Positions 591 to 48,271 of a stretch of 64,000 nt of DNA are shown here, in pieces. Source of the DNA: Escherichia coli 042 (GTDB lineage Bacteria > Pseudomonadota > Gammaproteobacteria > Enterobacterales > Enterobacteriaceae); the NCBI RefSeq assembly GCF_000027125.1, contig NC_017626.1; one strand, 5' to 3'. The notes under the pieces are model-generated. The model worked only from the letters and a program-made list of their open reading frames with translations. It did not search any database and was not told the DNA's origin. The translations under genes and the position numbers were made by a program. Numbering within the stretch: the first letter of the stretch is position 1; each line of letters opens with the position of its first letter.

Positions 591-603
591 TGGAGTGTGA
601 GGA

Positions 604-3600
604 ATGGGTAAAGGAAGCAGTAAGGGGCATACCCCGCGCGAAGCGAAGGACAACCTGAAATCCACGCAATTACTGAGTGTGATCGATGCCATCAGCGAAG
701 GGCCGATTGAAGGTCCGGTGGATGGATTAAAAAGCGTGCTGCTGAACAGTACACCGGTGCTGGACAGTGAGGGGAATACCAACATCTCCGGTGTCACGGT
801 GGTGTTCCGGGCAGGTGAGCAGGAGCAGACACCGCCGGAGGGATTTGAATCCTCCGGTTCCGAGACGGTGCTGGGTACGGAAGTGAAATACGACACGCCG
901 ATCACCCGGACCATCACGTCTGCAAACATCGACCGTCTGCGCTTTACCTTCGGTGTGCAGGCTCTGGTGGAAACCACCTCAAAGGGGGACCGGAATCCGT
1001 CGGAAGTCCGCCTGCTGGTTCAGATACAACGTAACGGTGGCTGGGTGACGGAAAAAGACATCACCATTAAGGGCAAAACCACCTCGCAGTATCTGGCCTC
1101 GGTGGTGGTGGGTAACCTGCCGCCGCGCCCGTTTAATATCCGGATGCGCAGAATGACGCCGGACAGCACCACAGACCAGCTGCAGAACAAAACGCTCTGG
1201 TCGTCATACACCGAAATCATCGATGTGAAACAGTGCTACCCGAACACGGCACTGGTCGGCGTGCAGGTGGATTCGGAGCAGTTCGGCAGCCAGCAGGTGA
1301 GCCGTAATTATCATCTGCGCGGGCGTATTCTGCAGGTGCCGTCGAATTATAACCCGCAGACGCGGCAATACAGCGGTATCTGGGACGGAACGTTTAAACC
1401 GGCATACAGCAACAACATGGCCTGGTGTCTGTGGGATATGCTGACCCATCCGCGCTACGGCATGGGGAAACGTCTTGGTGCGGCGGATGTGGATAAATGG
1501 GCGCTGTATGTCATCGGCCAGAATTGCGACCAGTCGGTGCCGGATGGCTTTGGTGGCACGGAGCCGCGTATTACCTGTAATGCGTACCTGACCACGCAGC
1601 GCAAGGCGTGGGATGTGCTCAGTGATTTCTGCTCGGCGATGCGCTGTATGCCGGTATGGAACGGGCAGACGCTGACGTTTGTGCAGGACCGGCCATCGGA
1701 TAAGGTGTGGACCTATAACCGCAGTAATGTGGTGATGCCGGATGATGGCGCGCCGTTCCGCTACAGCTTCAGCGCCCTGAAAGACCGCCATAATGCCGTT
1801 GAGGTGAACTGGATTGACCCGAACAACGGCTGGGAGACGGCGACAGAGCTTGTGGAGGATACGCAGGCCATTGCCCGTTACGGTCGTAACGTCACGAAGA
1901 TGGATGCTTTTGGCTGTACCAGCCGGGGGCAGGCACACCGCGCCGGGCTGTGGCTGATTAAAACAGAACTGCTGGAAACGCAGACCGTGGACTTCAGCGT
2001 GGGCGCAGAAGGGCTTCGCCATGTGCCGGGCGATGTCATTGAAATCTGTGATGATGACTATGCCGGTATCAGCACCGGCGGGCGCGTGCTGGCGGTAAAC
2101 AGCCAGACCCGGACGCTGACGCTCGACCGTGAAATCACGCTGCCATCCTCCGGCACCACGCTGATAAGCCTGGTTGACGGACAGGGGAATCCGGTCAGCG
2201 TGGAGGTCCAGTCCGTCACCGACGGCGTGAAGGTGAAAGTGAGCCGTGTTCCTGACGGCGTTGCCGAATACAGCGTGTGGGGGCTGAAGCTGCCGACGCT
2301 GCGCCAGCGCCTGTTCCGCTGCGTGAGTATCCGTGAAAACGATGACGGCACGTATGCCATCACCGCCGTGCAGCATGTACCGGAAAAAGAAGCCATCGTG
2401 GATAACGGGGCGCACTTTGACGGCGACCAGAGCGGCACGGTGAATGGTGTCACGCCGCCAGCGGTGCAGCACCTGACTGCCGAAGTCACCGCAGACAGCG
2501 GGGAGTATCAGGTACTGGCCCGCTGGGACACGCCGAAGGTGGTGAAGGGGGTGAGCTTTATGCTTCGCCTGACCGTGGCAGCGGATGACGGCAGTGAGCG
2601 GCTGGTCAGCACGGCCAGGACGACGGAAACCACATACCGCTTCACGCAACTGGCGCTGGGAAACTACAGGCTGACAGTCCGGGCGGCAAATGCCTGGGGG
2701 CAGCAGGGCGATCCGGCATCGGTATCGTTCCGGATTGCCGCACCGGCAGCGCCGTCGCGGATTGAGCTGACGCCGGGCTATTTTCAGATAACCGCCACGC
2801 CGTATCTTGCCGTTTATGATCCGACGGTACAGTTTGAGTTCTGGTTCTCAGAAAAGCGGATTGCGGATATCAGGCAGGTTGAAACCGCAGCCCGCTATCT
2901 TGGCTCGGCGCTGTACTGGATAGCTGCCAGTATCAATATCAAGCCGGGCCATGATTATTATTTTTATATCCGCAGTGTGAATACTGTTGGCAAATCGGCA
3001 TTCGTGGAGGCTGTCGGTCGGGCGAGCGATGATGCGGAAGGTTACCTGGATTTTTTCAAAGGAGAAATCGGGAAAACACATCTGGCCCAGGAGCTGTGGA
3101 CGCAGATTGATAACGGTCAGCTTGCGCCGGACCTGGCTGAAATCAGGACGTCCATTACGAATGTCAGCAATGAAATCACGCAGACCGTCAATAAAAAACT
3201 GGAAAATCAGAGTGCGGCAATCCAGCAGATACAGAAAGTTCAGGTTGATACAAATAATAACCTGAACAGCATGTGGGCCGTGAAACTGCAGCAGATGCAG
3301 GACGGACGCCTTTATATTGCGGGTATCGGTGCCGGTATTGAGAATACGCCAGCAGGAATGCAGAGTCAGGTGCTGCTGGCGGCAGACAGGATTGCGATGA
3401 TTAATCCTGCGAATGGCAACACAAAGCCGATGTTTGTTGGTCAGGGCGATCAGATATTTATGAATGAAGTGTTCCTGAAATATCTGACGGCTCCCACCAT
3501 TACCAGCGGCGGTAATCCTCCGGCATTTTCCCTGACACCGGACGGGCGGCTGACGGCGAAAAATGCCGATATCAGCGGTAACGTGAATGCGAACTCCGGG

Positions 3601-4083
3601 ACGCTCAACAACGTCACGATTAACGAGAACTGTCGGGTTCTGGGAAAATTGTCCGCGAACCAGATTGAAGGCGATCTCGTTAAAACAGTGGGCAAAGCTT
3701 TCCCCCGGGACTCCCGTGCACCGGAGCGGTGGCCATCAGGAACCATTACCGTCAGGGTTTATGACGATCAGCCGTTTGACCGGCAGATTGTTATTCCGGC
3801 GGTGGCATTCAGCGGCGCTAAACATGAGAAAGAGCATACTGATATTTACTCCTCATGCCGTCTGATAGTGCGGAAAAACGGTGCTGAAATTTATAACCGT
3901 ACCGCGCTGGATAATACGCTGATTTACAGTGGTGTTATTGATATGCCTGCCGGTCACGGTCACATGACACTGGAGTTTTCGGTGTCAGCATGGCTGGTAA
4001 ATAACTGGTATCCCACAGCAAGTATCAGCGATTTGCTGGTTGTGGTGATGAAGAAAGCCACTGCAGGCATCACGATTAGCTGA
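604..4083 (+). CDS. J: Host specificity protein J (central tail fibre / tip attachment protein)
   Basis: 1159 aa ORF; N-terminus [38 protein letters not shown] matches my recollection of lambda J; size and position before lom fit. SD-like gagg upstream of ATG. Confidence 0.95.
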
Positions 4084-4100
4084 ATTTTATAACCCAGATA

Positions 4101-4128
4101 CGGGCGCCAGAAATGGCGCCTTTTTTAT
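4101..4128 (+). terminator. Rho-independent terminator after J
   Basis: ggcgcc-agaaat-ggcgcc hairpin followed by tttttt. Confidence 0.5.
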
Positions 4129-4150
4129 TGCAGAAAAGCGAGAGGTAATT

Positions 4151-4750
4151 ATGCGTAAATTATGTGCTGTTATTTTGTCCGCAGTAGTCTGGCAGGTCGC
4201 CGCTGCTACGCCAGCGAGTGCAGCAGAACATCAGTCCACGCTGAGCGCGGGGTATCTCCATGCCTCGACGAACGTTCCCGGTAGTGATGATCTGAACGGG
4301 ATTAACGTGAAATACCGTTATGAGTTTACGGACGCGCTGGGGCTGATTACGTCCTTCAGTTATGCCAATGCTGAGGATGAGCAAAAAACGCGCTACAGCG
4401 ATACCCGCTGGCATGAAGATTCCGTGCGTAACCGCTGGTTCAGCGTGATGGCGGGGCCGTCTGTACGCGTGAATGAATGGTTCAGCGCGTATGCGATGGT
4501 GGGTGTGGCTTACAGCCGTGTGTCGACTTTCTCCGGGGATTATCTCCGCGTAACTGACAACAAGGGGAAAACGCACGATGTGCTGACCGGAAGTGATGAC
4601 GGTCGCCACAGCAACACGTCTCTGGCGTGGGGGGCTGGCGTGCAGTTTAATCCGACCGAATCCGTGACCATTGACCTTGCTTATGAAGGTTCCGGTAGTG
4701 GCGACTGGCGAACGGATGCATTTATTGTTGGTATCGGATACCGTTTCTGA
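4151..4750 (+). CDS. lom: Lom/Ail/PagC-family outer membrane beta-barrel protein
   Basis: 199 aa, signal peptide ending ASA-AE, C-terminal GYRF beta-barrel signature, position immediately after J as in lambda. Confidence 0.9.
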   Translation: MRKLCAVILSAVVWQVAAATPASAAEHQSTLSAGYLHASTNVPGSDDLNGINVKYRYEFTDALGLITSFSYANAEDEQKTRYSDTRWHEDSVRNRWFSVMAGPSVRVNEWFSAYAMVGVAYSRVSTFSGDYLRVTDNKGKTHDVLTGSDDGRHSNTSLAWGAGVQFNPTESVTIDLAYEGSGSGDWRTDAFIVGIGYRF

Positions 4751-4853
4751 CAACAGACGCCGATTTATCTTCTGTAAATATTGTTATGATACGCAGGTTC
4801 ATCCACCTTATGGGGTGAACTGCGTTTGAGGAAACGTAAAGTTACACTGTCCT

Positions 4854-4888
4854 GAAGCCCGTGGCGTCACTGCTGCGGGCTTTTTTTA
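4854..4888 (+). terminator. Rho-independent terminator after lom
   Basis: aagcccg..cgggctt stem followed by ttttttt. Confidence 0.5.
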
Positions 4889-4901
4889 TTGGTGGAAAAG
4901 T

Positions 4902-7900
4902 ATGACAGTAAAAATTTCTGGCGTGCTTAAAGATGGCACAGGAAAACCAGTACAGAACTGCACCATTGTGCTGAAGGCCAGACGAACCAGCAGCACGGTG
5001 GTGGTGAACACGGTGGCCTCTGAAAATCCGGATGAAGCCGGACGTTACAGCATGGATGTTGAGCATGGTCAGTACAGCGTCACCCTGCTGGTTGAAGGTT
5101 TTCCGCCTTCACATGCCGGGACCATTACCGTCTATGAAGGTTCCAGATCAGGTACGCTGAATGATTTTCTCGGTGCCATGACGGAGGATGATGTCCGACC
5201 GGAGGCACTGCGCCGCTTTGAGCAGATGGTGGAAGAGGTGTCACGTAACGCCTCCGCGGTTGCACAGAATACGGCAGCCGCGAAAAAATCAGCCAGCGAT
5301 GCCAGTGCATCAGCCAGCGAGGCGGCAACTCATGCAACCGATGCTGCAGCCTCAGCACGTGCCGCCAGCACGTCAGCCGGACAGGCCGCGTCGTCGGCTC
5401 AGTCAGCGTCTTCCAGCGCAGGAACGGCATCGACAAAGACCCGTGAAGCAGCAAAAAGTGCTGCTGCTGCAGAGTCATCAAAAAGCGCGGCAGCTACCAG
5501 CGCCAGTGCCGCGAAAACGTCAGAAACGAATGCCGCAGCATCACAAAAATCGGCAGCCACTTCTGCATCCACAGCGACCACGAAGGCGTCAGAAGCTGCC
5601 ACCTCGGCACGGGGTGCGGCGGCCTCAAAAGAGGCAGCGAAATCTTCAGAAACGAATGCATCATCAAGTGCCAGTAGTGCAGCTTCCTCGGCAACGGCGG
5701 CAGGAAATTCCGCGAAGGCGGCAAAAACGTCCGAGACGAACGCTAAGTCTTCTGAAACAGCAGCGGGACAGAGCGCCTCAGCTGCGGCAGGTTCAAAAAC
5801 AGCGGCTGCATTATCTGCCAGTGCCGCGTCAACAAGTGCCGGGCAGGCCTCAGCCAGTGCCACCGCCGCCGGAAAATCGGCAGAAAGCGCCGCATCATCC
5901 GCTTCAACAGCCACAACGAAGGCTGGCAAAGCCACTGAGCAAGCCACTGCAGCAGCGAGGTCTGCTTCTGCAGCAAAAACCTCTGAAACAAATGCAAAGA
6001 CTTCAGCAGACAATGCTGCTTCCTCTAAGGCGGCAGCCGCATCGTCAGCCAGTTCAGCGGCGTCATCGGCATCATCTGCGTCTGCTTCAAAAGATGAGGC
6101 GACCAGACAAGCGTCAGCAGCGAAAGGTAGTGCCACGACAGCAACAACGAAAGCATCAGAGGCGGCAGGCAGTGCGACGGCTGCATCTCAGAGCAAAGTT
6201 GCTGCTGAATCCGCGGCAACGCGCGCCGAGACAGCAGCAAAACGGGCAGAGGATATTGCATCCGCCGTGGCGCTGGAGGATGCGAGCACGACGAAAAAGG
6301 GGATAGTACAGCTCAGCAGTGCAACAAACAGCACCAGTGAAAAGCTGGCGGCAACGCCAAAGGCAGTTAAAACTGTTAAAGATAGTTCAGTTCAAAAAAC
6401 TGGCGACACAATGGGAGGGCAGTTAAAAATCAGCACGATAAATGCTCTTCGAATATTCAACCAAGCCTTTGGCCTTATTTTTAGGCGTTCCGAAGATCAT
6501 CTTCATCTTATTCCGACTAATGAAGGGGAGGGGGAAAATGGAGACATCGGTTCATTAAGACCATTCTCTATAAACTTAAGATCAGGGTTGGTGTCCATCG
6601 GTAATGGACTAAAAGTTGGTGGTAGTGTTACTGGTAATTTGACCGGAAACGCAGATACTGCGACCAAGATCAAGACAGCACGTAAGATTGGGGGCGTGGC
6701 ATTTGATGGATCGGCAGATATCAACTTGCCTGGAGTCAACGCTACCGGTAATCAAAACACTACAGGTAATGCTGCGACCGCCACGAAACTTCAGGCAGCC
6801 AGAACGATTAACGGTGTGTCATTTGATGGTAGTGCAAATATCACATTGACCCCTTCAAATATTGGGGCATTGGCATTAACTGGAGGGACTCTTTCAGGTG
6901 GTTTAACTGCTGCTGGTGAGGTTATTTCAAGGTCAGCAAATGGTCTGCGTATTGCCTATGGCAACTATGGATTCTTTATCCGAAATGATGGATCAAACAC
7001 ATATTTTATGTTGACAGATTCGGGTAACAGTCTTGGTACGCACAATAGCTTAAGGCCGTTTATAATTAGTAACCATACTGGCAATGTTACAATTGCAACT
7101 AAATTAAACGCGAGTGGTGGTATCACTGGATCTTTATCGGGTAATGCAAGCACAGCAACCAAATTGCAAACTGCAAGGACAATTAACGGCGTAAAATTTG
7201 ACGGCTCGGCAAATATTGAAGCGTTTCCGCCAGGTGTTCCGCTGCCGTGGCCATCAGATACACCACCTGCAGGTTATGCAATCATGCAGGGGCAGACGTT
7301 TGATAAGGCAGCATATCCGAAACTGGCTATTGCCTATCCTTCAGGTGTTATTCCAGATATGCGCGGCTGGACAATCAAGGGCAAACCCGCCAGTGGCCGG
7401 GCCGTATTGTCTCAGGAACAGGACGGCATTAAATCGCACACCCACAGCGCCAGCGCATCCAGTACGGATTTGGGGACGAAAAACACATCGTCGTTTGATT
7501 ACGGAACCAAATCCACGAATAACACCGGGGCGCATACCCATAGTATTAGCGGGACTGCAAATAGTGCCGGTGCGCACCAACACAAGAGTTCCGGTGCATT
7601 TGGTGGCACGAACACGAGCATTTTCCCTAATGGTTATACCGCGATTTCAAATCTAAGCGCGGGGATTATGAGCACAACAAGCGGTAGTGGCCTGACTCGT
7701 AATGCAGGGAAGACATCATCAGATGGTGCTCATACCCACTCGCTGTCCGGCACTGCTGCAAGCGCAGGCGCACATGCACATACTGTCGGTATTGGTGCTC
7801 ATACGCACTCCGTTGCGATTGGCTCACATGGACACACCATCACCGTTAACGCTGCTGGTAACGCGGAAAACACCGTCAAAAACATCGCATTTAACTATAT

Positions 7901-7916
7901 TGTGAGGCTTGCATAA
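4902..7916 (+). CDS. stf: Side tail fibre protein
   Basis: 1004 aa; N-terminus [22 protein letters not shown] and C-terminus ..[18 protein letters not shown] resemble lambda Stf from memory; long Ala/Ser/Thr-rich low-complexity shaft; three tandem ~38-aa repeats (TGNxxTATKxxTARxIxGVxFDGSAxI) at about 6600-7210; cluster of His-x-His motifs near the C-terminal tip. Confidence 0.92.
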
Positions 7917-8500
7917 TGGTATTCAGAATGAGTGAACAACCACGGACCATAACAATTTATAATCTGCTGGCCGGAACTAATGAATTTATTGGTGAAGGTG
8001 ATGCATATATTCCGCCTCATACAGGTCTGCCAGCAAACAGTACCGATATTGCACCGCCAGATATTCCGGCAGGCTTCGTGGCTGTTTTCAACAGTGATGA
8101 GGCATCGTGGCATCTCGTTGAAGATCATCGGGGTAAAACGGTTTATGACGTGGCTTCCGGCGACGCGTTATTTATTTCTGAACTCGGTCCGTTACCGGAA
8201 AATGTTACCTGGTTATCGCCGGAAGGGGAGTTTCAGAAGTGGAACGGCACAGCCTGGGTGAAGGATACGGAAGCAGAAAAACTGTTCCGGATCCGGGAGG
8301 CGGAAGAAACAAAAAACAACCTGATGCAGGTAGCCAGTGAGCATATTGCGCCGCTTCAGGATGCTGCAGATCTGGAAATTGCAACGGAGGAAGAAACCTC
8401 ATTGCTGGAAGCCTGGAAAAAGTATCGGGTGTTGCTGAACCGTGTTGATACATCAACTGCACCTGATATTGAGTGGCCTACGAACCCTGTCAGGGAGTAA
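7916..8500 (+). CDS. tfa: Tail fibre assembly protein (chaperone)
   Basis: 194 aa, start overlaps stf stop; sequence [54 protein letters not shown] matches recalled lambda Tfa almost residue for residue. Confidence 0.93.
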
Positions 8501-8550
8501 TCATTGGGATTATGCCGCAGCACGTCTTAAGCAAGAACGTGCTGCGGTTG
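8340..8550 (+). repeat. Direct repeat copy A (tfa 3-prime end plus downstream hairpin)
   Basis: About 210 bp, roughly 90 percent identical by eye to 9390..9600, including the post-stop sequence taatcattgggattatgccgcag. Confidence 0.8.
8513..8548. terminator. Hairpin between convergent tfa and methyltransferase genes (candidate bidirectional terminator)
   Basis: gccgcagcacgt / acgtgctgcgg arms (about 11-12 bp) around an 11-nt loop; T-run follows on the plus strand. Confidence 0.45.
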
Positions 8551-8554
8551 GATG

Positions 8555-9223
8555 CTATTTTTTCCCTGAAGCGGAAAACATTACTACAGTACCTTGAACC
8601 TTGGTTTTAACATTCTCGAAATGCTCTGAGAGTATATGTGTTAAGCCTTCTTCGGAATCTTTTGTGTTTGAAAAGATGCCTTTCTGATTGTAAATGCGCA
8701 TCAGTTTTTGACCGAAGCTATTGTGCACAACTCCATCGCCAAGAATTGTGGCTCCGTATAGAGTTCCATCGTCAGTTAAGGCCTGCGCCGCATTGCGTAT
8801 TACACAGCTTTTTGTAGATATATTTCCAGGCAGGCAGTGAAGAAGGTAAAACATGGAAATGGAATCAAATTGACCATGTAACGCCGCGGGATAAGGTTCA
8901 AAAACATCATGGCTAATTTTATGTTTAATTTTTGATTCCCCAGCCCTTGTAGATGCCGCGTTCAGGCTAGCTTCGTTCAAATCCATTAAAGATATCAGAC
9001 TACTCTCAGGTACGTGAGTAAGGTAAAACCCAGTTCCAACACCAATATCCAGATGGTTGTTACCTAAATGTTCCAGAAAGTGTGGAAGAAGGTGTTCCTT
9101 TGTAGGACATCCCCATGCAAGCCGATTTGATACTCCCAAAACCCACCAGTCATAAAGCTTTAGGGTAAGTGGTGTGTAAATTTTAGCCCCATCATCTGTG
9201 TTTTTTTTCATTAATTTCACCAT
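8555..9223 (-). CDS. Class I SAM-dependent methyltransferase (putative), prophage cargo gene
   Basis: 222 aa ORF. Motif I LDIGVGTG, acidic post-I ISLMDLN, motif II FDSISMFYLLHCLP, motif III LTDDGTLYGATIL in canonical order. Visibly AT-rich versus neighbours. Likely true start is the second Met (MKKNTDDG, about 9211) which has a GGTGA SD-like sequence upstream. Substrate unknown. Confidence 0.65.
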   Translation of the reverse strand: MVKLMKKNTDDGAKIYTPLTLKLYDWWVLGVSNRLAWGCPTKEHLLPHFLEHLGNNHLDIGVGTGFYLTHVPESSLISLMDLNEASLNAASTRAGESKIKHKISHDVFEPYPAALHGQFDSISMFYLLHCLPGNISTKSCVIRNAAQALTDDGTLYGATILGDGVVHNSFGQKLMRIYNQKGIFSNTKDSEEGLTHILSEHFENVKTKVQGTVVMFSASGKK

Positions 9224-45859: not shown

Positions 45860-46648
45860 TTATTTCAGTTCGAGTTCGTTCATTGCAGCGATGCTGAAAC
45901 CGCCGTCAACGTGGACCACTTCACCGGAGATACCGGCAGAGAGATCGGAGCACAGGAATGCCGCAGAGTTACCCACATCTTCAATGGTAACGGTACGGCG
46001 AATCGGGGTAACGGCTTCGCAATGAGCCAGCATTTTGCGGAAGTCTTTGATACCGGAAGCCGCCAGAGTACGGATCGGACCCGCAGAGATGGCGTTAACA
46101 CGCACACCTTCCGGACCCATCGCGTTCGCCATATAGCGCACGTTTGCTTCCAGAGACGCTTTTGCCAGACCCATAACGTTGTAGTTCGGGATAGCGCGCT
46201 CAGCGCCAAGGTAGGAAAGGGTCAGCAGGGCAGAACCCGGATTCAGCATGGAGCGGCAAGCTTTTGCCATTGCAACGAAGCTGTAGGAGCTGATGTCGTG
46301 GGCAATTTTGAAGCCTTCACGGGTAACGGCGTTAACATAGTCACCATCCAGCTGATCGCCAGGTGCAAAACCAATAGAGTGTACGAAACCGTCAAATTTC
46401 GGCCAAACTTTCCCCAGTTCAGCGAACATGGTGTCGATGCTGGCATCTTCTGCAACATCGCACTGCAGAACGATGTCAGAACCCAATTGAGCGGCAAATT
46501 CTTCTACGCGGCCTTTCAGTTTGTCGTTCTGGTAGGTGAATGCCAGTTCAGCTCCTTCGCGGTGCATCGCCTGAGCGATACCGTAGGCGATGGACAGTTT
46601 GCTGGCAACACCGGTTACCAGAATGCGCTTACCGGAAAGAAAACCCAT
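45860..46648 (-). CDS. fabI: Enoyl-ACP reductase (NADH)
   Basis: 262 aa; [40 protein letters not shown]. Confidence 0.97.
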
Positions 46649-46813
46649 AGCTTTAATCCTTATTGTTGATGCTTGTTGTGCCTGAAAATCAGGCGATTCG
46701 TCGTTTTAGTAAACAGTACGAACAGATAAACGGTTATTATAATCAACCTGGCTGTGAGTGGCTATAGTTGCCAGGTCCGACCGGAGCAGGGTGCGGGCAG
46801 GGTGGGCGCTTTT

Positions 46814-47060
46814 CCCCTCACCCTAACCCTCTCCCCAGAGGGGCGAGGGGACCGTATTGTGCAAATATTGTCACCCCAGCAACAAACAGGCTTATACAGC
46901 CCCCTAACCCTTTCAGGGCGATGGCTGGGGTGAGAGTGAATGGTGGTTCAGACCTTGCCGAATATTCTTCATCATCCGCCTCCATGTTTTCACCACAACA
47001 GCTATTCGGCTCGGTCGGCCCCCTCGCCCTTTCAGGGAGAGGGTTGGGGTGAGGGTGACA
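46814..47060. repeat. Cluster of three GC-rich 40-52 bp extragenic repeat units in alternating orientation (REP/BIME-class)
   Basis: Unit 1 at 46814-46851; unit 2 at 46900-46950 and unit 3 at 47009-47060 are direct copies (about 85 percent by eye); unit 1 is the inverted complement of the unit 3 core; unit 3 overlaps the 3-prime end of ycjD. Confidence 0.75.
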
Positions 47061-47394
47061 GGCGGTTCAGTTCCTGCAGAATAATCTCCAGCACCGCCTC
47101 CTCATTACAATCAATCTCGTTATTCCAGAAACGCAGCACGGTCCAGCCCTGCGACTCAAGCCAGCTAGTGCGCCTGGAATCATAGGCAACTGCCAAATCA
47201 TGCTGCCCACCATCCAGCTCAACTACTACACGCGCCGAGCAGCAAGCAAAATCGAGAATGTAGCTCCCCACCGGATGTTGACGGCGAAATTTGAAATCAC
47301 CAAAACGTCGGCTGCGAAGATATCGCCAGAGCTTTCGTTCCTGCGAAGTGAGATTGCGTCTTAAATCACGCGCATTTGATTTTATTTTATCCAT
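47032..47394 (-). CDS. ycjD: YcjD, DUF559 (Vsr-like endonuclease fold) protein
   Basis: About 120 aa; ORF track start is GTG at 47397, ATG at 47394; last codons (SPSPQPSP) lie inside repeat unit 3. Confidence 0.88.
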   Translation of the reverse strand: MDKIKSNARDLRRNLTSQERKLWRYLRSRRFGDFKFRRQHPVGSYILDFACCSARVVVELDGGQHDLAVAYDSRRTSWLESQGWTVLRFWNNEIDCNEEAVLEIILQELNRLSPSPQPSP

Positions 47395-47464
47395 CACCTC
47401 ATTCTGACAAGATTTAATCTCTTGTCAGAATGAGGTGAATAATCTGGAAGGAGGATTCAGAAAA

Positions 47465-48271
47465 TTAACGATCTTTACGCCACGCATCCGCCGTCAATGC
47501 CTCGCCAAAATGACCGGCAATAAGCCGTTTGGTGAGTTCATGCAGCGGCGATGCCAGCACATCGGCGGTGCTGCCTCGCTCGACAACCTCGCCCTGATGC
47601 ATCACCAGCACCTGGTCGCTAATGTGCTTCATCATTCCGATATGCTGGGTAACATAAATATACGAAATGCCCTGTTTTTCCTGTAACTCAAGCATCAGAT
47701 TAATCAACTGCGAACGCATCGACATATCCAGTGAGGCGAGGGCTTCATCGGCAATAATGACTTTTGGGCGCAATATCAGCGCGCGTGCCAGACCCAGACG
47801 CTGTTTTTGCCCGGGTGCCAACATATGCGGATAGTAACTGACGTGATCCGGTAGCAGCCCAACCATACGCATCGTTTCAATAATCTGTTTGCGACGCTGT
47901 TCCGGTTCCAGGTCGGTGTTCAGACGCAGTGGAAAATCCAGAATTTGCGAGATACGTTGACGGGGATTCAACGAGGTCGAAGGATCCTGAAAAATCATGC
48001 GAATACGCTGACTGCGGAAGGAATAATCGCCAAAATGCAGCGGATGATCGTCAATCAATAACTCGCCGCTGGTAGGTTCTATCATTCCCGCCAGCATTTT
48101 TGCCAGCGTGGATTTACCCGAACCATTCTCGCCAATAATCGCCAGTGTCTGGCCTTCACGTAGCGTAAAGCTCAAGGGTTTTACCGCTTCTACGGTCTGA
48201 CGACGAAACCAGCCGGTTCGATAGCGGAACGTTTTACTTAAATTACGCACTTCAAGCAGCGTTTCGATCAT
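47465..48271 (-). CDS. sapF: Peptide/putrescine ABC transporter ATPase SapF
   Basis: 268 aa; Walker A GENGSGKST. Confidence 0.95.
   Translation of the reverse strand: MIETLLEVRNLSKTFRYRTGWFRRQTVEAVKPLSFTLREGQTLAIIGENGSGKSTLAKMLAGMIEPTSGELLIDDHPLHFGDYSFRSQRIRMIFQDPSTSLNPRQRISQILDFPLRLNTDLEPEQRRKQIIETMRMVGLLPDHVSYYPHMLAPGQKQRLGLARALILRPKVIIADEALASLDMSMRSQLINLMLELQEKQGISYIYVTQHIGMMKHISDQVLVMHQGEVVERGSTADVLASPLHELTKRLIAGHFGEALTADAWRKDR

Follow-up and report, generated by a model that had tools for sequence, protein, structure and literature searches.

Three GC-rich repeat units lie between fabI and ycjD in Escherichia coli 042, within a 64,000-nucleotide (nt) stretch of contig NC_017626.1 (NCBI RefSeq assembly GCF_000027125.1) that we refer to as the window. 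These units are elements of the family known as boxC, PIT or TMECO, and the third of them represents the conserved repeat at the 3′ terminus of a cassette built around ycjD, a gene encoding a protein of the DUF559 family. On balance, we lean towards the view that the nuclease and the repeats constitute a single selfish system, and that boxC singlets and doublets derive from it by loss of the gene and are kept or copied with the help of the nuclease. A more specific proposal is advanced only tentatively, and with distinctly less confidence: YcjD-like DUF559 proteins could be the dedicated nucleases of a very widespread selfish element of ~420-450 bp that has triplex-forming inverted repeats at its ends and, thanks to their near lack of stop codons, lives in-frame in conserved or essential genes (hrpA, priA, and hsdM) without an intron or intein, and boxC/PIT/TMECO could be its REPIN-like non-autonomous derivatives.

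The units were located with a degenerate 33-nt pattern built from the description in the original prediction, which had been made from the letters of this DNA alone. The pattern matches exactly three sites in the window and none in 100 shuffles; the strands of these sites, together with a mean column identity of 79% across the three aligned units, bear out the claim that they form one family with two direct copies and one inverted copy (Table 1). Unit 1 is letter for letter the K-12 TMECO #9 (antisense, 1,351,239-1,351,204; Table 1 of PMC4666352), and its sequence also equals the K-12 copies #16, #19, and #22, whereas unit 2 shows three mismatches to the pattern and fails the strict TMECO consensus. 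Unit 3, with no mismatches to the pattern, satisfies the published consensus of 34-37 nt, CCCTCNCCC-N3-6-GGGNGAGGG-N3-GGGNGAGGG, which consists of three blocks and two loops (PMC4666352). Given the identity of unit 1 to TMECO #9 and the fit of unit 3 to the consensus, the units are boxC/TMECO elements, so that boxC, one of the candidates named originally for comparison with catalogued families, turned out to be the correct one. The suggestion that they might be of the ordinary REP/BIME class does not hold: although REP/BIME elements are likewise short, extragenic, GC-rich E. coli repeats that often lie between convergent genes, the REP core GCC(G/T)GATGNCG(G/A)CG is absent from 46790-47060 at up to two mismatches, and the unit sequences are unrelated to it. 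A search of Rfam produced nothing relevant, only sub-threshold miRNA-like matches on the ycjD 5′ hairpin that we take as chance. In ViennaRNA calculations, which cover the hairpin part of TMECO only and not the triplex, unit 1 folds at -12.4 kcal/mol (z = -2.85), and unit 2 folds no better than random (z = -0.46).

Table 1. Features of the region between fabI and sapF; positions are those of the window.
Feature	Position	Strand	Description
fabI	45860-46648	-	
Haplotype-specific segment	46772-47455		boxC cluster and ycjD; ~2100 of 5426 complete E. coli genomes have the ~8-kb eefRABCD island instead
Unit 1	46814-46849	-	type A boxC/TMECO core, complete: CCCTCGCCCCTCTGGGGAGAGGGTTAGGGTGAGGGG; orientation opposite to that of units 2 and 3
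Duplication copy A	46865-46983		spacer, unit 2, and relic of the ycjD 3′ end
Unit 2	46902-46937	+	degenerate, TMECO-like: CCCTAACCC TTTCA GGGCGATGG CTG GGGTGAGAG T; in duplication copy A
Relic of ycjD 3′ end in copy A	46938-46985	-	homologous to ycjD codons for ~EEAVLEIILQELNRL
Duplication copy B	46984-47102		spacer, unit 3, and functional ycjD 3′ end
Unit 3	47021-47056	+	perfect TMECO consensus: CCCTCGCCC TTTCA GGGAGAGGG TTG GGGTGAGGG T
ycjD	47032-47397	-	121-amino acid (aa) DUF559 protein (Vsr-like PD-(D/E)XK endonuclease family)
Start hairpin	47395-47437	-	perfect 18-bp stem holding the ycjD GTG/ATG start and a GAGG Shine-Dalgarno-like motif; between the sapF stop and ycjD
sapF	47465-48271	-	

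Oligonucleotides of type A and type B form intrastrand triplexes of the purine motif in vitro, as judged by circular dichroism and nuclear magnetic resonance, and sequence variability around TMECO sites is in excess, with no function found for the elements (Holder et al., 2015; PMC4666352). The same study describes TMECO as "always located intergenically", reports no tie to known mobile elements, finds that type A units always pair with type B units in E. coli, and lists 62 boxC loci common to 56 E. coli strains, the positions of which are mostly conserved (PMC4666352). It traces BoxC to Bergler et al. (1992), a paper on the envM gene. The family is dispersed: a 771-nt query matches a median of four places per genome, for example beside tkt/ypfG, and four further K-12 TMECO loci were read at the sequence level. 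We take envM to be fabI, and boxC was then presumably first seen at the present locus. With respect to phyletic spread, matches to the strict E. coli consensus have also been recorded for Azospirillum, Azotobacter, Bradyrhizobium, Caulobacter, Arthrospira, Chlorobium, and others, and Enterobacter genomes carry up to 70-143 copies (Supplementary Table S1 of PMC4666352); vertical descent by itself can hardly account for such a patchy distribution.

Units 1 and 2 occupy intergenic DNA. Unit 3, in contrast, is partly coding, as it contains the last eight ycjD codons and the stop: the TGA at 47032-47034 is the complement of TCA in loop 1 of the unit, and the tail SPSPQPSP is the complement of its two G-blocks. 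The original claim that the third unit overlaps the end of ycjD, making the tail repeat-encoded, is thus corroborated by the open reading frame (ORF) and by the RefSeq coding sequence of 366 nt, annotated identically in E. coli strain 118UI, in which the region is 100% identical. The Pfam DUF559 domain covers residues 4-111 of 121 (E = 1e-48), leaving the last 10 residues outside.

This arrangement is not confined to E. coli. Nearly all of the 120 best YcjD homologues, which are 55-69% identical and come from more than 10 enterobacterial genera (among them Enterobacter, Kluyvera, Klebsiella, Phytobacter, Lelliottia, Scandinavium, and Franconibacter), end with ...PSPRPSP or ...PSPQPSP, or continue from there into ...xGRG or KGEG. 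When the tail was removed and the domain alone was searched against representatives clustered at 50% identity, 24,939 matches were obtained, and in many of the best 150 a tail that starts a few residues past the domain translates the same DNA, in the frames PSPQPSPxxGEG, PHPNPLPxGERG, and LTPTLSxxGRG. Because the element is translated in three frames, it is conserved at the level of DNA rather than peptide. Protein-level selection for a functional PSPxPSP tail, with the resemblance to boxC secondary, is therefore rejected as very improbable: PSPRPSP or PSPQPSP is nearly invariant in the enterobacterial homologues, as it would predict, but other lineages read the same DNA in the two other frames or after a stop, and ~94% of the E. 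coli genomes that possess ycjD have lost four of the tail residues.

To place the junction in its DNA context, 80 loci (numbered with the prefix L below) were collected from one-genome-per-species contigs with two domain-only patterns, [IV]ELDGGQH and G[WFY][RTH]V[LIR]RFWN. They span Enterobacteriaceae, Xanthomonadaceae, Burkholderiales, Nitrosomonadales, Gallionellales, Legionella, and Alphaproteobacteria, as well as Chloroflexi, Melainabacteria, Pirellula, Nitrospira, Elusimicrobia, and cyanobacteria. Immediately beyond the domain end, the DNA nearly always reads CCCTCACCC-N2-4-CCCTCTCCC-N4-6-GGGAGAGGG or has a lineage-specific form of this sequence, that is, the complement of TMECO with the hairpin on the outer side. 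A strict regular expression finds 29 elements that begin 0-30 nt past the domain end and 30 elements of opposite orientation just upstream of the gene, as compared to ~35 in ~400 kb of far-flank control sequence. In an nhmmer search (E ≤ 1), at least one correctly oriented flanking element is present in 71/80 loci vs 4/281 shifted windows, and both are present in 46/80 vs 0/281. A downstream element was detected at E ≤ 0.05 in 49 loci; the stop codon precedes this element in 10 of them, falls within it in 9, and follows it in 30.

These observations speak directly to a rival reading, under which the overlap is a local accident: an ordinary REP/BIME or boxC element would have inserted at the end of ycjD and extended the frame by chance, with no functional link. 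It is true that boxC occurs in many other intergenic regions, that the tail lies outside the Pfam domain, and that its shortening in most strains does no obvious harm. However, the REP core is missing, and the same junction recurs across genera and phyla in fixed orientation, in three frames and often with an inverted upstream partner, at a frequency far above that in the control windows. We consider an accident improbable and largely refuted.

The upstream element mirrors the downstream one, with the hairpin outermost and the third block toward the gene, so that DUF559 genes with both elements are bracketed by terminal inverted repeats of ~36-40 bp (~37 bp in L033), which in L035 are identical at 35/35 positions. 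Across 19 loci, identity is 0.77 within a locus vs 0.54 between loci, a difference reached in 0 of 10,000 permutations. Empty counterparts of this architecture exist as well. K-12 contains five inverted TMECO pairs, four of which are tail-to-tail with spacers of 17-28 nt (Table 1 of PMC4666352; sequences read), and such boxC doublets look like the cassette minus its gene. Both forms occur together on a contig of the candidate division FCPU426 (L058), where a filled cassette of ~420 bp, with an ATG directly after the left repeat, is accompanied by three empty doublets within 6 kb (830-970, 4180-4320, and 5720-5860); each doublet consists of a TAG-loop unit and a CCG-loop unit, paralleling the A+B pairing in E. 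coli. The FCPU426 unit sequences are almost identical to those of E. coli despite the phylogenetic distance. On a Nitrospira contig, a dispersed copy comprises ~20 nt of the gene 3′ end together with the repeat, as does duplication copy A in the window.

In at least 8 of the 80 loci, a long host ORF continues on both sides of the cassette, and no stop interrupts its frame across the left repeat, the DUF559 ORF or the right repeat. The host genes, named by eye from the flanking protein sequences rather than by a family search, are hrpA (L035 and L063), a ygiQ-like radical-SAM gene (L026 and L054), priA (L029), hsdM (L053), and DNA methylase-like genes (L061 and L079); other DUF559 cassettes are fused upstream of ispE or murB. 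At the hrpA site, the E. coli protein is contiguous (...RHFNNAPIIEVSGRTYP), whereas L035 has ~150 residues interposed. The repeats are nearly free of stop codons, which makes in-frame residence inside host genes possible. Between L035 and L063 the host flanks are 92-94% identical vs 77% for the insert; for the hrpA and ygiQ-like pairs together, the host genes are 79-94% and the DUF559 part 69-77% identical, values that fit either vertical inheritance or repeated homing. In three genera of Xanthomonadaceae (L033, L040, and L075), a repeat-flanked DUF559 cassette stands directly upstream of the same gene, the product of which starts with MF(S/D)KILIANRGEIACR and resembles biotin carboxylase. This shared site argues for long vertical persistence at one position.

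As for the protein, YcjD matches PRK09767 in NCBIfam, and DUF559 is its only Pfam domain; a transposase domain is absent. The family belongs to the PD-(D/E)XK superfamily, and a YcjD profile detects Vsr (PMC1189080). The best solved relative is an "endonuclease-like protein" (PDB 3HRL, E = 1e-27); the sole other PDB match of the family profile, over 54 positions, is 3R3P, the homing endonuclease I-Bth0305I (E = 0.012). An alignment of the family shows no variation at E60, D62, and H66. The ratio of nonsynonymous to synonymous substitutions (dN/dS) among E. coli ycjD alleles is 0.17-0.35, and hence the gene is not decaying. None of the defence-system families in PADLOC matches YcjD, and PHROG matches are weak.

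Taking these data together, we propose that YcjD-like DUF559 proteins could function as Vsr-like nicking nucleases of a selfish cassette, which would recognize or process the structured hairpin/triplex terminal repeats. Solitary boxC units and tail-to-tail doublets would then be gene-less derivatives or former cassette ends, propagated or maintained in trans in the way REPINs are by RAYT transposases; alternatively, they might be copied by gene conversion initiated by the nuclease, as in the case of homing endonucleases. The copy numbers in E. coli fit this proposal, in a trend that is confounded by phylogeny: phylogroups A, B1, and C, with ycjD at the locus, have 13-30 TMECO copies, whereas phylogroups lacking ycjD there have 0-2 (B2), 6-7 (F), and 11 (E, represented by O157), on the assumption that our assignment of the named strains to phylogroups is correct. 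This comparison joins published TMECO counts (PMC4666352) to the published distribution of ycjD and eefRABCD (PMC12817139).

The main rival, which we regard as unlikely, reverses the causality: boxC would spread independently, and a free-standing DUF559 gene of the homing type would land between the halves of existing doublets. The shared geometry of filled cassettes and empty tail-to-tail doublets is compatible with such a history, as are the match of the family profile to I-Bth0305I, the occupation of the same hrpA and ygiQ-like positions in different lineages, and the 6-15 TMECOs found in E. coli lineages without ycjD at the locus. This scheme, however, leaves the multiplication of doublets without a cause; moreover, the repeat variant tracks the gene locus in which it resides, the lowest TMECO numbers are those of lineages without ycjD, and the enterobacterial genes carry the repeat on one side only.

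Several points nevertheless weigh against a single nuclease-repeat system. The TMECOs persisting in lineages without ycjD are one, and the phylogenetic confounding of the copy-number trend is another. Dispersed copies resemble the repeat of their own locus (0.88) only modestly more than those of other loci (0.82), with a median rank of 7/57. No TMECO was found on the 5′ side of ycjD in E. coli or at other enterobacterial loci, and no clear target-site duplication was found at the in-gene insertions, apart from an imperfect repeat of the 'AP' codons at the hrpA site only. The 80 loci are the best-scoring relatives of YcjD (at least 45% identity), and many are contigs of metagenome-assembled genomes. 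To our knowledge, no transposition chemistry has been described for a lone nuclease of ~110 aa. Recent mobility is low, because the 62 boxC loci are shared among the 56 strains and the three Xanthomonadaceae genera share one context. Furthermore, PIT elements are said to have no effect on promoter activity, termination or conjugation (Hoyne and Maher, 2002, as cited in PMC4666352), and Holder et al. detected no association with mobile elements (PMC4666352). The proposed functional link between YcjD and boxC is drawn from sequence rather than experiment.

A different type of explanation treats the repeat as a regulatory signal, i.e., a terminator, an mRNA-stabilizing 3′ hairpin or a translational device, whose spread elsewhere is unrelated. 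In its favor, the stop codon lies in the hairpin loop in Enterobacteriaceae, the outer part of the element is a stable GC hairpin, and a second hairpin sequesters the ycjD start. A 13-bp part of this start hairpin folds at -12.3 kcal/mol (z = -6.1; ViennaRNA), and its position is consistent with tight translational control of the nuclease. However, the hairpins are not followed by a T-run, a scan for intrinsic terminators finds none at the units, and the PIT experiments of Hoyne and Maher, as cited by Holder et al., revealed no terminator or promoter activity; a terminator would also leave the mirror-image upstream copy, the third block, and the in-frame residence in hrpA and priA unexplained. 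We therefore see little prospect for a purely regulatory role. As a separate observation on the 5′ side, the enterobacterial ycjD homologues (L006-L015 and L042), which occupy at least five different genomic contexts, have in common a leader of ~70 nt in which a pair of short inverted repeats, ctgaa...ttcag and ttctgnc...gncagag, takes the place of a TMECO; these are related to the ycjD start hairpin, and no TMECO was found in the 170 nt upstream that were examined.

Among known systems, the closest parallel is with REPIN-RAYT. Both involve short, GC-rich, structured repeats that occur as singlets and inverted doublets, a single- or low-copy gene located between inverted repeats, repeat variants that co-vary with that gene, and a repeat abundance that differs sharply among related lineages. 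The gene, however, is a DUF559 PD-(D/E)XK nuclease of ~110 aa here and an HUH/Y1 (IS200/IS605-like) transposase there, and the repeats are of a three-block triplex type as opposed to a simple palindrome. Inverted doublets or flanks, which characterize REPIN-RAYT, are seen in the same 46 of the 80 loci that have both elements, and the E. coli ycjD locus has the 3′ side only. By analogy, then, the DUF559 system may work like REPIN/RAYT without being a member of it.

The Vsr-like EDxHD homing endonucleases, such as I-Bth0305I (3R3P; PMC3239194), appear to be of the same nuclease superfamily as YcjD, and their genes likewise look selfish and are found in conserved host genes, recA in their case and hrpA, priA, and hsdM here. 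I-Bth0305I, however, resides in a group I intron and carries NUMOD DNA-binding domains (PMC3239194), whereas YcjD is a bare catalytic domain. In the YcjD-like cassettes, intron or intein features were not seen; these cassettes are bounded by inverted repeats and, inside genes, are translated through. The terminal inverted repeats are shared with insertion sequences (IS) and miniature inverted-repeat transposable elements (MITEs); YcjD has no transposase domain. Rickettsia palindromic elements (RPEs), reported by Ogata and colleagues in 2000, are said to be stop-free palindromic repeats tolerated in-frame within genes. In this respect they and MITEs are similar to the cassettes, but RPEs encode no protein, whereas here a nuclease ORF is present.

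In comparison with the published boxC/PIT/TMECO elements (Bergler et al., 1992; Bachellier et al., 1999; Hoyne et al., 2000; Holder et al., 2015), which are GC-rich, dispersed, and tied to local genomic instability of the kind that the present locus displays, the difference is that those elements are described as always intergenic and without a partner gene or mobile element, whereas unit 3 is part-coding and the family is tied to DUF559 across phyla. The K-12 version of unit 3 is missing from the published TMECO list because of a 12-nt deletion. The presence of boxC at the locus, the instability, the alternative between ycjD and eefRABCD, and the 12-nt polymorphism have all been published. 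In the literature searched, which excluded most subscription journals, we found no paper that links DUF559, ycjD or COG2852 to TMECO, and no description of the inverted-repeat architecture, the empty-doublet reading or the in-frame insertions.

If the link is real, an origin and a partner protein would follow for boxC/PIT/TMECO, which have been known since 1992 as triplex-forming elements that mark unstable sites, and both boxC and the K-12 gene ycjD would gain a testable role. The partnership of nuclease and repeat would be comparable to that of RAYT and REPIN, with a different chemistry, and would explain the ~20-fold differences in boxC copy number between E. coli phylogroups. The findings also point to nuclease cassettes that live in-frame inside conserved genes and alert annotators to the repeat-encoded origin of the Pro/Ser/Gly-rich tails of DUF559 proteins.

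In E. coli, the gene is followed, from ycjD outward, by a unit with TTG as loop 2 and then, past a spacer, by a type A unit in inverted orientation; the first of these units has type B geometry, yet its loop 2 is TTG rather than the published CCG. Only the 3′ side of the cassette survives in E. coli. Copies A and B form a tandem repeat with a spacing of 119 bp and are 73% identical without gaps (83% mean column identity in a pairwise alignment); the duplicated stretch includes ~50 nt from the 3′ end of the ycjD coding sequence, in copy B the codons of the C-terminal helix. A divergent E. coli allele in the same sapF-ycjD-fabI context (L086), which encodes a YcjD of 134 aa, has no duplication: ycjD is followed by a single TMECO (complement), 52 nt, and a type A TMECO, as is also the case in Enterobacter and its relatives. 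Thus, in the present lineage, the gene end and its repeat were duplicated in tandem (119 bp), and unit 2 is a product of this event. Unit 1 is retained both in K-12 and in L086.

The expectation, voiced originally, that the YcjD C-terminus would vary between strains was borne out in the 5426 complete E. coli genomes surveyed. The 3′ segment of ycjD is present in 3325 of these: 178 possess the intact unit 3 and the 121-aa allele (at least 99% identical to the window), and 3132 have the 12-nt deletion of the K-12 type (80-90% identical over 114 nt). K-12 itself combines this deletion inside unit 3 with a 13-nt deletion inside unit 2, and its YcjD consists of 117 aa and ends with RRSPSP. The deleted 12-nt segment begins with GAGGG, which is also found directly after it, and the sequence indicates that the deletion arose by slippage between the two G-blocks of unit 3, which are direct repeats. 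For ST69 and ST182, a "12-nt insertion" has been reported at the 3′ end of ycjD, with no mention of the repeats (PMC12817139). Sequence comparison makes it more likely that this polymorphism (47044-47055) reflects a deletion by slippage in phylogroups A, B1, and C than an insertion, because the repeat consensus, the E. ruysiae homologue, and the unduplicated allele L086 all agree with the longer form. The rarer YcjD lengths are 134, 144, 147/148, and 159/160 aa. The 159/160-aa forms (P0001, P0002, and P0004) read through into copy A and end with ...KNIRQGLNHHSLSPQPSP; in the 147/148-aa forms (recombinants P0015 and P0016), ycjD is fused to the copy A relic and ends with ...PLAPLGRGLG, which is unit 1 translated. 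The longer tails thus arise by exchange between the duplicated copies or by loss of the loop stop codon. The C-terminal variability is a side effect, since the repeats slip at a conserved gene-repeat junction.

The remaining ~2100 genomes lack ycjD and the repeats altogether and have the eefRABCD haplotype, an alternative that has already been published (PMC12817139). The junctions of the island lie at about 46771 and 47456, and in L003 (O157) it spans 600-8620. The left junction is directly upstream of a promoter-like site of fabI (-35/-10 at 46764-46736), and strains with the eef haplotype carry beside sapF a diverged version of the ycjD start-hairpin stem (CCTCATCCTGA...TCAGGATGAGG). In strain PSS-16 (L005, 335-2068), an IS421 transposase gene adjoins the boxC side of ycjD, for which the annotation there gives a pseudogene interrupted by an internal stop. 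Records classed as plasmid rather than chromosome account for five of the 3325 matches to the ycjD 3′ end with unit 3. Finally, the synonymous divergence (dS) from the L086 strain is 0.41 for ycjD, 0.07 for fabI, and 0.23 for sapF; the high value for ycjD suggests an old or imported allele.

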